From Haliotis cracherodii (taxonomy: Eukaryota): a DNA stretch of 64,000 bases. Positions 41,494 through 52,703 of this stretch are shown piece by piece (position 1 is the first letter of the stretch; every line of letters begins with the position of its first letter). The notes under the pieces were generated by a model that had not been told where the DNA came from, ran no database searches, and saw only the letters and a list, made by a program, of their open reading frames with translations. The position numbers were made by a program, and so were the translations under genes. The stretch lies in NCBI RefSeq assembly GCF_022045235.1, contig NW_027266264.1:67022001-67086000 (forward strand), in the 5' to 3' direction.

Positions 41494-42072
41494 AGTAGTA
41501 AAGTACATCTGTCTGGAACCACCTCAGGATTCTGGAACCACTCAGGATTCTGGAACCACTCAGGATTCTGGAACCAAGATGGCGGCACATCCGTTTCCGG
41601 TCACGTGACCTGCGCAGTGCATGATGGGTACCTGCGCGTGCCTCCAAGATGGCGTCGCTTCCGTTTCCGGTGGCGTGCGCCTCCAAGAGGGCGTCACTTC
41701 CGTGTCCGGTGGCGCACGCCTCCAAGAGGGCGTTGCCTCCGTTTCCGGGGAGAAGGAGGGGGAGGGGGGAAACCCGGAGAAGCGCCCGTAAAAGGTGAAC
41801 GGGATCGACATGGAAAGAAGCGCGTCAAACATCGTTTGTGGTTGTTGTTGTTGTTGTTCTAAACATAGACGGGGAGGTGGTGGTGAAGGGAGGGAGGGAG
41901 GGAGTGAGGGTGGTGGTGGTGGTGGTGGTGGTGAGGGGAAGGGGGGGGGGGAGGGAGGGAGGGAGGGAGGAAAGGAGGAGGAGACGGGTTCATGGTGTGG
42001 GTTGGAGGGTCGTCAAAGCAAAGGAGGAAAGTTGTCTTTCGGGAGAGATGGGTGGCCCTGAAAAGGGCCGTT
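41494..42072 (+). repeat. Left terminal inverted repeat (~579 bp)
   Basis: Reverse complement of 52143-52703, differing mainly in microsatellite/G-run length. Contains 18-bp and ~39-bp internal tandem repeats. Confidence 0.95.
42054..42069 (-). terminator. Histone-type 3' stem-loop with downstream HDE-like GAAAGA (42040-42035)
   Basis: Minus strand reads AAC GGCCCT TTTC AGGGCC ACCCA TCTCTCCC GAAAGA. This matches the metazoan 6-bp stem/4-nt loop consensus with the ACCCA cleavage tail. Confidence 0.85.
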
Positions 42073-42079
42073 TTGATGT

Positions 42080-42402
42080 TTACATGCAAGTGCACGCAGA
42101 GGTGCAAAGGCACGGGTGGACATTCATCTGTCTCCTGACAGGACACCTACCGGTGTGCGTTAACCGCCGCACGTAGGTGTCCTTGAGGATGGTCTTACAG
42201 TACACACATTGAAATGTTCCATCCCAAGGCTTGGGGCAAGGGCGTACACAGGCAGGGCCCCTTGGCATGTACCGCATTGCCATGGTGGAGGCAATGGCAA
42301 TGACGGTACTGCTTCTTTCTTCTCCAACTCCGAGCGACACCCTTTGCACAGTGGCAAAGGGTGCACCACTGAGGCTAGCTCCAGATCCCAGTTTTCAGCC
42401 AT
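42080..42402 (-). CDS. Small Cys-rich putative zinc-binding protein (80-aa ORF 42160-42402; possibly frameshifted into the 42080-ending frame)
   Basis: ATG follows a cassette promoter and shares its leader and MAE start with the BIR gene. CKGC..CGTC in one frame and FQCVYC..H..C in the overlapping frame. Ends just before a histone stem-loop. Confidence 0.5.
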
Positions 42403-42423
42403 TCTTGATTTTTCGAATCAATT

Positions 42424-42722
42424 TTACAAGTGACACTGATCCATTCGAATCCACTGTTGTTTTATAGGAGAGGTACTGCCACCCTGCTTCCTGATTGGTT
42501 CCCCAGGCAGCGCCCCCGATTGGTTCGTTTCGGTGCCTGGTCTGCACCTCGGTTTTCCAAAACGGACCGACCCCTGTGTTTCTTTTCCATAGGAAATGGA
42601 TTTTACCATGGGAGAGAAAGCACAACCCCGGTTCGGCCAATCAGAGCCCGCCATGGCCCGAGCGCGGCTTCTGATTGGTCGATAACCCAGGCTTCGGATT
42701 GGTCCGATTTCGATCCGGGTTT
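42424..42722 (-). promoter_or_regulatory. Promoter cassette P1 (multi-CCAAT, AAGAAACACA, TATAAAA)
   Basis: One of four homologous ~250-300-bp cassettes. AC box at 42575-42584 and TATAAAA at ~42460-42466 on the minus strand. Confidence 0.75.
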
Positions 42723-42954
42723 TTTCTTCTTGGGTAGCCTTGGTATTTTTTTGAGGTAGACGGTCGTCTGAATGCAAAAGGAAGGTGGACCTTCATAGGT
42801 AGACATGAACGTGGGAATGCCTACGTGATGTACGTGTGTGTCACTCCCATGCCAATCGGAATGTCAATCGGAATGTCATGTGGGTTCTTTGTTTTGGATT
42901 GTTGTTTGGGTTGGTAAAGCAAAGGTGGAAAGTTGTCTTTTGGGTGAGATGGGT

Positions 42955-42970
42955 GGCCCTGAAAAGGGCC
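42955..42970 (-). terminator. Histone-type 3' stem-loop downstream of BIR gene 1
   Basis: Minus strand reads TAC GGCCCTTTTCAGGGCC ACCCA TCTCACCC AAAAGA, 60 nt after the stop at 43031. Confidence 0.85.
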
Positions 42971-43030
42971 GTATTAACAGGAACTTGAACGGGAACTTGA
43001 ACGGGAACGCAGGACACGGGAAACGTCCTC

Positions 43031-50419: not shown

Positions 50420-50932
50420 ATGGAGCAAAGACGTTCTATGAATGTCATGTCATCCTCCCGAGATGTCGTCACCGATTCCGAGTGGGTGTCTGAAAAGGCG
50501 AGAGAACAAGAAGCGAGAAAACGTCCCCTCTTTAGGGACGACACGTGGCGACTCAGTGACATTCTGGAGGGACCTTTTCCTTCTTACACCCTGTGTCATC
50601 CTTCTCATCCTCACTATGAATCATTTCAAGAACGTCTGAGGTCTTTTAAAACGTGGCCTAAACAGATGACCCAGACCCCGTATGACATGGCCATGGCTGG
50701 CTATTTCTATCCAGGACGAGGTGACTGTGTGACCTGTTATTGCTGCGGTGTGGCACTCCGCCAATGGGAAGCCACAGACCAACCCTGGAAAGAACATCTG
50801 AAGCACGCCAAAGTCCCCTGCGAATACTTGTGTGTGTTTTGTCCTGATGGAGAAGTGAACGAAAAATACAGACGTTTGGTGTCCCAAGAAGCACGGAGGA
50901 GAAGAGTCGAGTGTCTTGTTCACCCCAAGTGA
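50420..50932 (+). CDS. Single-BIR inhibitor-of-apoptosis-like protein 2 (170 aa)
   Basis: ERLRSFKTWP..MAMAGYFY.G.GDCVTCYCC..WEATDQPWKEHLKHAKVPCEYL is a BIR domain; no RING. Confidence 0.9.
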   Translation: MEQRRSMNVMSSSRDVVTDSEWVSEKAREQEARKRPLFRDDTWRLSDILEGPFPSYTLCHPSHPHYESFQERLRSFKTWPKQMTQTPYDMAMAGYFYPGRGDCVTCYCCGVALRQWEATDQPWKEHLKHAKVPCEYLCVFCPDGEVNEKYRRLVSQEARRRRVECLVHPK

Positions 50933-51117
50933 CAAAGTTTCTTTTTTTCAAAGTGTACAGACGTTCATACCCCTCGTGTTCACAAAATTCACAGGGACGC
51001 CCCCTCATCCTGTGACTTTTTGTTTTGTGGTGTTGGTTCATGTGAGCAGGGGGATTAAATTTTTTTAAAAACCCATAGTCGTGTTCTGTGGTCTGTAGGA
51101 TGAAGAAAAACAAAACA

Positions 51118-51410
51118 GGATCGAAATGCACACCCCGATAAAAAAACAGGATCGAAATTGGACCAATCCGAAGCCTGGGTTGTCGACCAATCAGAGACCA
51201 TACTCGGGTCATGCGGGACTCTGAATGGTCGAACCGGGGTTGTGCTTTCTCTCCCATGGTAAAATCCATTTCCTATGGAAAAGAAACACAGGGGTCGGTC
51301 CGTTTTGGAAAACCGTGGTGCAGACCAGGCACCGAAACGAACCAATCGGGGGCGCTGCCTGGGGAACCAATCAGGAAGCAGGGTGTCAGTGGCTCTCCTA
51401 TAAAAACAAA
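51118..51410 (+). promoter_or_regulatory. Promoter cassette P4 upstream of zinc-knuckle gene
   Basis: CCAAT at ~51163, ~51187, ~51342 and ~51367; AAGAAACACA at 51281-51290; TATAAAA at ~51399. Confidence 0.8.
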
Positions 51411-51454
51411 ACAAGAGCGAAGCCACTCACACACACACACACACACTGCATTCT

Positions 51455-52057
51455 ATGAAACCCATCATGTCAGCTCGATACAGTTGTATGAAGTGCCAGA
51501 CCGACAGTCACAGTTACCTGTACTGCCCTGAAGTGACATGCCTCGAGTGTGACACTCAAGGTCACCGTCACTATGTCTGTCCGAAGATGAACAGTCAAGA
51601 GAAGCAGGAGAATCGGAACCTGGGTCCCTGTTACAACTGTGAAGCCATGGGTCATTTCGCTGCAGATTGCCCAGAACCCAGTCGAAAGAAGACTCCCCAT
51701 CGCCTGGACCGCTGTTACAACTGTCAAGCCCTGGGTCATTTCGCTGCAGATTGCCCAGAACCCAGTCGAAAGAAAACGCCAGCAACACCGTCCACGTCGA
51801 CACCCGTGGCACCCGTGACACCCGTGACACCCGTTACAAAAGTGGTTCATCTCATCGAAGACGTGCACGTCGATGTCCTCGACCTAAAAGAATGTCTCGC
51901 ACAACTCCGTGCAGGCATCACACCTCTTGTAGAGAAAAGAAAACGGGTCAGAAGCCTCTCAAGAAAGCACGCTTCAAAGCGCCGACGACACCTTCAGTCC
52001 GAGGATGAGATGGAAGTAGAGGATGAAGAAGATAGATCATCTGAACAAAGTGACTAA
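51455..52057 (+). CDS. CCHC zinc-knuckle nucleic-acid-binding protein (200 aa)
   Basis: Four CX2CX4HX4C motifs (CMKCQTDSHSYLYC, CLECDTQGHRHYVC, CYNCEAMGHFAADC, CYNCQALGHFAADC), followed by a basic NLS-like and acidic tail. Confidence 0.85.
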   Translation: MKPIMSARYSCMKCQTDSHSYLYCPEVTCLECDTQGHRHYVCPKMNSQEKQENRNLGPCYNCEAMGHFAADCPEPSRKKTPHRLDRCYNCQALGHFAADCPEPSRKKTPATPSTSTPVAPVTPVTPVTKVVHLIEDVHVDVLDLKECLAQLRAGITPLVEKRKRVRSLSRKHASKRRRHLQSEDEMEVEDEEDRSSEQSD

Positions 52058-52142
52058 CGCATGGGCCATGCTACCCCACTGTTTTTACCAGTGTCCCATC
52101 GTTTGCAGTTTTTCCAGTGTTCCAGTTTCCAGTTTGTTTTCC

Positions 52143-52703
52143 AACGGCCCTTTTCAGGGCCATCCATCTCTCCCGAAAGACAACTTTCCTCCTTTGCTTT
52201 GACGACCCTCCAACCCACACCATGAACCCGTCCCCTCCTCCTTTCCTCCCTCCCTCCCCCCCCCCCCTCCCTTCACCACCACCACCACCACCACCCTCAC
52301 TCCCTCCCTCCCTTCACCACCACCACCCCGTCTATGTTTAGAACAACAACAACAACCACAAACGATGTTTGACGCGCTTCTTTCCATGTCGATCCCGTTC
52401 ACCTTTTACGGGCGCTTCTCCGGGTTTCACCCCTCCCCCTCCTTCTCCCCGGAAACGGAGGCAACGCCCTCTTGGAGGCGTGCGCCACCGGACACGGAAG
52501 TGACGCCCTCTTGGAGGCGCACGCCACCGGAAACGGAAGCGACGCCATCTTGGAGGCACGCGCAGGTACCCATCATGCACTGCGCAGGTCAAGTGACCGG
52601 AAACGGATGTGCCGCCATCTTGGTTCCAGAATCCTGAGTGGTTCCAGAATCCTGAGTGGTTCCAGAATCCTGAGGTGGTTCCAGACAGATGTACTTTACT
52701 TCT
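52143..52703 (-). repeat. Right terminal inverted repeat (~561 bp)
   Basis: Reverse complement of 41494-42072. Confidence 0.95.
52146..52161 (+). terminator. Histone-type 3' stem-loop downstream of zinc-knuckle gene, HDE-like GAAAGA at 52175-52180
   Basis: CCAAC GGCCCTTTTCAGGGCC ATCCA TCTCTCCC GAAAGA, 88 nt after the stop codon. Confidence 0.85.

Follow-up and report, generated by a model that had tools for sequence, protein, structure and literature searches.

The integrated element and its genes

A 64,000-nucleotide stretch of the Haliotis cracherodii genome (assembly GCF_022045235.1, contig NW_027266264.1, positions 67,022,001 to 67,086,000 of the forward strand; hereafter the window) contains an integrated Polinton-like element of 11,210 bp at positions 41494-52703, with a gene for a protein-primed DNA polymerase (PolB) and five small genes. 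We argue that it is probably one half of a Polinton divided between two elements. It begins with AGTAGT and ends with ACTTCT (one mismatch relative to the left end), and its terminal inverted repeats (TIRs) align over 579 columns at 95.5% identity (∼570 bp). AGTATA flanks it on both sides; because two paralogous empty sites in the window each hold this 6-bp target once, the target-site duplication (TSD) is a genuine insertion mark, and the clean ends and 6-bp TSD of the original prediction stand at their exact coordinates. The termini of this element and its family lie within the ranges given for Polintons (TIRs of 100–1500 bp, TSDs of 5–8 bp; 10.1101/2023.08.22.554363).

Pfam matches in the element are confined to DNA_pol_B_2 (PF03175), two BIR domains and zf-CCHC, and the two further small open reading frames (ORFs), gA3 and gA4, match no Pfam family (Table 1). 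TIRs and the six genes occupy 7,953 of the 11,210 bases, and part of the remainder consists of four copies of a promoter-like repeat, each up to ∼330 bp; the copy at 42460..42725 has CCAAT-box- and TATA-like motifs and may function as a promoter. The window PolB has frameshifting indels near 45,060 and 45,480, plus a substitution in motif B. With two frameshifts, this copy is unable to make its own polymerase and is a dead insertion.

Judged from its motifs, gA4 is a candidate Oncoid-like protein as defined in PMC8502044, with Rb binding as a lead only; it had no usable match in Atlas. A second Cys-rich stretch (49696-49815), 46–48% like the gA4 C-terminus, occurs in nearly all family members and may be a sixth small gene or exon. 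In the TIR at 41570-41750, and in mirror image at the right end, tandem 39-bp units carry AAGATGGCG and CCGGAA motifs, which we take to resemble YY1 and ETS sites; the number of units differs among copies.

Table 1. Features of the window element (type A), its insertion site and the paralogous empty sites; type B is the partner family described below
Feature	Coordinates	Strand	Evidence
Empty target site, paralogous copy of host repeat	9320..9325	.	6-bp target present once
Second empty target site, 1 base different	25507..25512	.	6-bp target present once
Left 6-bp TSD AGTATA	41488..41493	.	Self-alignment; empty sites
Left TIR, begins AGTAGT, common to type-B elements	41494..42072	+	Alignments
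Promoter-like repeat, no intact gene behind it here	42460..42725	-	Self-alignment
BIR1, single-BIR inhibitor-of-apoptosis-like, 150 aa	43031..43483	-	PF00653 E 1e-22; open in 31/31 A copies
Promoter-like repeat, BIR1/PolB interval	43474..43806	.	Self-alignment
Protein-primed PolB, in three frames here	43882..48078	+	PF03175; open in 21/31 A copies
Promoter-like repeat, upstream of gA3	48143..48316	+	Self-alignment
gA3, 167 aa, no known family	48562..49065	+	No Pfam match; open in 29/31 A copies
gA4, 180 aa, LxCxD motif, acidic run, paired CxxC	49127..49669	+	Motif in 24/26 open copies
Vestige, 89% to DNA directly upstream of type-B ATPase gene	50121..50182	+	Alignment to type B
Vestige, 82% to DNA upstream of type-B gene p320; precedes BIR2 here	50361..50433	+	Alignment to type B
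BIR2, single-BIR, 170 aa	50420..50932	+	PF00653 E 2e-20
Vestige, 85% to DNA downstream of type-B protease gene	50953..51123	+	Alignment to type B
Promoter-like repeat, upstream of ZnK	51140..51405	+	Self-alignment; comparison with type B
ZnK, CCHC zinc-knuckle protein, 200 aa	51455..52057	+	PF00098 E 4e-13
Right TIR	52143..52703	-	Self-alignment
Right 6-bp TSD AGTATA	52704..52709	.	Self-alignment

Family A across the genome

Genome searches were scored for their best candidates only (40 of 449 with the TIR, 111 of 404 with PolB, and 95 of 374 and 150 of 513 in further searches). Ten TIR pairs, 21 loci with long open PolB frames and the window copy gave 32 TIR-bounded elements, all with perfect 6-bp TSDs, and 31 of them share the same six-gene layout (family A). 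Sizes are 10.6–11.9 kb in 29 copies, 9.8 kb in one and 16.2 kb in another that carries a nested insertion. PolB is open in 21 of the 31 copies and all six genes in 20, fractions that are not population rates because the PolB-search loci were picked for an open frame. The open PolBs are 1,415–1,422 aa long and retain what we take to be OTU-like, exonuclease, VSR-like and polymerase A/B/C motifs. Left and right TIRs are identical in eight copies and differ by 1.6% in the window copy. Given 31 copies, the element is not a unique one-off deletion of a full-length Polinton, and integration with TSDs in all 31 departs from a non-integrating linear plasmid.

The 16.2-kb copy (L011/L012, G000:C1:41.91-41.93 Mb) was considered as a same-ended helper and rejected: it is an A copy that has received, at element positions ∼9,000-12,900, a nested insertion of a different, small element encoding an rve-chromo integrase and an ATPase of A32 type. 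The genome contains very many similar ATPases (33–36% to that of family B, below) and likewise very many 218-aa A32 frames, and elements of this nested type are possibly further reduced Polinton-derived families. In three old PolB copies (L121/122, L131/132, L139/140) ∼1.5 kb of mutually similar DNA takes the place of gA3/gA4, which may mark a second A subtype carrying different cargo.

A partner family carries the missing genes

The 32nd element (L017/L018) has a TIR at 94% to that of A, a different interior and no PolB. Among the candidates scored, the search for longer elements with the same ends, suggested with the original prediction, gave no intact helper but a same-ended, PolB-less partner, which we call B. 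Its genes run in the order ATPase, three ORFs, integrase with chromodomain, small ORF, minor capsid, small ORF, major capsid and protease. Pfam identifies the integrase (PF00665 plus chromo) and the ATPase (PF04665). The major capsid model (predicted local distance difference test, pLDDT, 89.9) is a double jelly roll matching the Sputnik major capsid protein (E 3e-16), and also the iridovirus and PBCV-1 major capsids. The minor capsid assignment is a lead from Atlas look-alikes with a low recognition score and from gene position, and the protease is putative, judged from motifs and a sub-threshold Pfam match.

All ten scored capsid loci at the level of at least 96% show the B gene order and no PolB; both ends were located in eight (10.2–10.6 kb), of which seven have perfect TSDs and four have all ten ORFs open. 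The left–right TIR difference is below 1% in five of the six copies measured. One young 8.3-kb B copy with a perfect TSD (L177/178, G000:C34:64.63-64.64 Mb) is a deletion derivative missing the major capsid gene.

Six-frame tblastn of the window element with the ten type-B proteins gave no match (best E 0.53), nor did an 80-sequence capsid profile. The predicted absence of integrase and virion genes, even as remnants, therefore holds at the protein level (Pfam, tblastn, capsid profile), whereas at the DNA level three non-coding vestiges of B-type sequence survive (82–89%; Table 1). The rve integrase, which the definition of a Polinton places on the same element (PMC5499653), is absent from A and present on B; the ATPase, protease, and major and minor capsid are likewise missing from A and all assigned to B. 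By this strict definition A alone is not a Polinton, for want of an integrase, yet it resembles the replication half of one.

The genome also holds a complete, one-piece cousin (G000:C4:10,273,014-10,289,514; L064-L066, L160) with 300-bp TIRs, an AGTAGT terminus, the TSD GTCGTC and open core genes. It combines PolB (54%) and a BIR gene with eight of the ten B genes in B order, so A and B together amount to a standard Polinton gene set. Its PolB is divergent from the virion block, and its ends do not match the A/B TIR. A and B display two features of a bipartite genome, namely complementary essential genes on separate molecules and matching termini on the segments.

The capsid and PolB are near-identical to proteins listed under H. 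rufescens, and the capsid is identical to an H. cracherodii entry. Sequencing runs from four organisms, one run each, cover both A and B; two of these runs are guessed to be RNA, with low or zero depth over some TIR bins, but no RNA dataset was listed as carrying the elements and contig depth does not measure copy number, and no expression claim is drawn from them. A contig of a second organism (X12, record 8) has the B layout from the ATPase start through to the TIR edge. Scans of IMG/VR with the capsid and PolB gave no match.

Joined relics and a proposed order of events

In older, decayed copies the two gene sets are joined on one strand, with PolB upstream of the B genes and head to tail with the virion block. 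One relic runs from PolB through to the protease (L147/148), another from PolB through to the minor capsid (L161/162) and a third from the end of PolB through to the capsid (L114/115); three more are partial and shorter (L135/136, L164/165, L166/167). The place taken by BIR2 in A is that of the virion–integrase block in the relics. The B left arm, for its part, retains in inverted orientation the inner part of the repeat at 51140..51405 and the start of ZnK (71%). Summing lengths would give a joined ancestor of ∼19 kb. In A copies L021 and L175 the right arm has been copied onto the left, a likely route to B.

Trees of both halves place the joined loci early. In the PolB phylogeny, five of the six joined loci fall below all A copies, and above them come first the old A copies and next the young ones as a clade; the remaining joined unit (L166, unit 2) groups with an old A-like unit from the locus it occupies. 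The joined loci are also at or near the base of the ATPase and integrase trees, on long end branches, and in these two trees the young B copies form one clade. Age layering is also apparent among 42 ATPase loci. Those at least 94% like the young form (n = 18) comprise 17 of B type, one unclassified and none joined, whereas those below 94% (n = 24) comprise 7 of B type, 15 with A-type DNA upstream and 2 unclassified (Fisher p 7e-6, on a non-random sample).

No young joined form was seen among the 18 young ATPase loci, the 10 young capsid loci or the 40 scored matches to the A junction, all 40 of which span the junction unbroken. Comparison of 109 x 57 PolB and capsid loci yielded two family-level pairs within 25 kb, and neither is a young joined copy: one consists of two separate elements and the other is a decayed joined relic. 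A B remnant ∼10 kb from an A copy (L107-L109) was also rejected as a joined form, the A copy's own end lying between them.

The joined relics and the vestiges support the proposal that the element is an internal-deletion derivative of a full-length Polinton, but that is not the whole story, as A is also a long-lived lineage under selection. In L143/144 and L114/115 the B-like part starts at an identical point just before the integrase; in L143 a promoter-like repeat lies directly upstream of it, hinting at another old deletion lineage.

Selection after the proposed split and probable exchange of ends

PolB on A and the genes of B have been under purifying selection since the split, with ratios of nonsynonymous to synonymous rates (dN/dS) of ∼0.2. 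For PolB, young A copies compared with five basal old A-type copies show 113 synonymous and 60 replacement changes (dN/dS 0.16, p 5e-31; 0.17 against the three strictest old copies), while private changes in the joined relics give 0.92. Seven B genes, compared between young copies and eight old PolB-less loci, give 0.21 (p 1e-11). BIR1, BIR2 and gA3 range from 0.42 to 0.56. The predicted self-replicating lineage is in this respect supported for the family, although the window copy's own PolB is broken.

A and B share TIRs of ∼500 bp, and both families include very young copies. In a TIR tree of 31 A and 6 B copies, both types occur in both main clades, with 5 label changes against 5.8 when shuffled, and mean distances are similar (AA 0.102, BB 0.120, AB 0.115). 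Three B TIRs have just 3–6 differences in about 470–500 bases from the nearest A TIR. The inner vestiges, in contrast, are only 70–89% alike. Intermixed TIRs beside inner vestiges that have drifted apart require that A and B went on exchanging their ends, and this would imply that the two replicate in the same nucleus.

A probable bipartite Polinton and its alternatives

We conclude that the window element is probably one copy of a segment, A, belonging to a bipartite Polinton that arose by fission, with partner segment B in the same genome. Selection and TIR exchange suggest that the two segments depend on and complement each other. The original prediction of a distinct lineage borrowing integrase and capsid fits in that A lacks both, but the likely donor is a PolB-less partner rather than a full-length helper. 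As this donor has the same ends, is complementary and itself needs a polymerase, 'segment' is a better description than satellite or linear plasmid. More tentatively, and with somewhat less than even confidence, A and B could as two segments make up a multipartite double-stranded DNA (dsDNA) virus that is still living, integrates, has a double-jelly-roll capsid and is spreading among abalones, its split from a one-piece ancestor via complementing deletion mutants being recorded in the host genome as a time-ordered fossil series.

Under the fission model, A would have formed from the joined ancestor by stepwise loss of the ATPase-to-protease block, and B by loss of the PolB arm and its replacement with an inverted copy of the right arm; the joined form would later have ceased producing new copies in this genome. 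Replication of both linear molecules would start at origins in the shared TIRs and be carried out by the A PolB with its terminal protein, in keeping with the terminal-protein domain and vOTU protease described for protein-primed PolB (pPolB; PMC11161782). The B integrase would insert both segments, and the B capsid, ATPase and protease would package them. The BIR proteins and the Oncoid-like protein of A may keep the host cell alive and cycling; inhibitor-of-apoptosis (IAP) and Oncoid genes are described for adintoviruses (PMC8502044).

Several points weigh against a bipartite origin by fission. No complementation, free DNA or virions were observed. The search for PolB loci overlooked at least one A copy, later found in L107-L109; with only the best candidates scored, the absence of a young joined copy is unproven. 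The 42 ATPase loci include some from a search aimed at joined forms. PolB lies within 5 kb in only 8 of the 15 joined-type loci, the other seven resting on an A-type stretch upstream, and two joined-type loci reach 93.7–93.8%, so that there was a period when joined and split forms coexisted. Private changes in old copies give dN/dS of 0.45–0.92 rather than 1, which makes for a soft neutral baseline, although the trunk values fall well below it; not every one of the eight old PolB-less loci is proven to be of B type; and there is no clear selection on ZnK (0.83–1.07), or on gA4 among young copies (0.96). The trees are rooted on distant outgroups, with one flagged long branch. An integrase could also be lent by other complete Polinton families in the genome whose genes are open. 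Finally, identity to the closest H. asinina capsid is 73% but to the closest PolB listed for that species only 50%, which makes earlier shuffling of modules probable as well.

The best-surviving alternative, which we consider unlikely, is that A and B are both defective parasites of a full-length, same-ended helper that is exogenous, polymorphic or missing from the assembly. Joined forms did once exist and overlapped in age with early B, and the evidence comes from best-scoring candidates in one assembly, that is, one individual. A helper with its own integrase should nevertheless leave young insertions, and none was present at the 18 ATPase, 10 capsid and 40 junction loci; pure parasites would not be expected to hold PolB or a whole virion module at dN/dS ∼0.2; and the B layout of the second organism's contig is against it as well. 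A satellite would have a present autonomous helper with the same ends, where we find only decayed joined relics and a same-ended partner without PolB.

Less likely again is that A and B are independent non-autonomous families served by other complete Polintons, their complementarity a by-product of common descent. Such Polintons with open genes do occur in the genome, and the AGTAGT terminus and 6-bp TSD are common to the complete cousin, but the ends of the cousin are otherwise unlike the A/B TIR. Independence also fits poorly with the near-identical A/B TIRs beside drifting inner vestiges, which need continued exchange between A and B, and with the retention under selection by each segment of exactly what the other lacks.

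A third alternative, in which the pair exists but the joined loci formed later by A–B recombination, with no single fission, is very improbable. In its favour, shared short stretches offer recombination points, one joined unit clusters with old A copies and PolB and capsid are unequally close to their H. asinina homologues. Against it, decay is greatest in the joined loci, which are basal in the trees of both halves; intergenic remains of the lost block persist in A, and B retains part of A's right arm in inverted form; and the outgroup Polintons are in one piece.

Host DNA and a further Polinton family

The host DNA around the element (8800-41493 and 52704-59700) is a ∼16-kb tandem duplication at 95–97% identity with cytochrome P450 exons; the element lies inside one duplicate, directly upstream of a P450 gene (PF00067 match at 53164-53628). 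Long tandem arrays with ∼32–36-bp and 43-bp units occupy 2434-5264 and the stretch from 5392. Elsewhere in the genome (L075/L076, G000:C67:50.668-50.688 Mb), a ∼1.9-kb tandem array derives from part of another Polinton family and lies beside its ATPase gene.

Relation to known systems and significance

Non-autonomous Polintons are already known, and we know of no described segmented double-jelly-roll dsDNA virus. A and B resemble Polintons/Mavericks, including the animal adintoviruses (PMC8502044), in their AGTAGT ends, TIRs, 6-bp TSDs and a pPolB with OTU-like and VSR-like motifs, and taken together in having an rve-chromo integrase, ATPase, protease, major and minor capsid, IAP and Oncoid-like extras. 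They differ in that this gene set is spread over two elements that integrate separately and are each under selection, neither of which has both PolB and integrase. Bidnaviruses (PMC8502044, PMC11071296) likewise have a Polinton-derived pPolB on one segment and segments with matching termini, but they are single-stranded DNA viruses with a parvovirus-type capsid and NS1, whereas A and B have a double-jelly-roll capsid and an integrase and are endogenous.

Cytoplasmic linear plasmids and transpovirons descend from polintons or polinton-like viruses by loss of the virion module (PMC11161782), and A alone is similar; unlike them, A inserts with 6-bp TSDs, and the module it lost is still present on a polymerase-less partner. 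The replacement of a full-length form by two gene-deleted genomes parallels the origin of multipartite viruses from complementing defective genomes considered by Leeks et al. (PMC10159356), whose work rests on a model and a cross-realm correlation, while here dated intermediates are kept in a host genome. No segmented Polinton was found in the literature searched (subscription papers, Repbase and supplements being outside its scope): the excerpts of PMC8502044, PMC11071308, PMC11161782, PMC11071296, PMC10214139, PMC10159356, PMC6431247 and 10.1101/2023.08.22.554363 contain none, and the segmented pPolB viruses in them are bidnaviruses. A pipeline requiring five core genes within 20 kb (10.1101/2023.08.22.554363) would filter out such halves.

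Polintons are defined by polymerase and integrase together, which are here split between two elements. The origin of multipartite genomes has long been debated, mainly on the basis of models; in this genome the joined ancestor occurs side by side with partial deletions and with the two segments, and their degree of decay gives an order. Polintons that have PolB alone or lack it, and have been written off as broken copies, may instead each be one half of a working pair.

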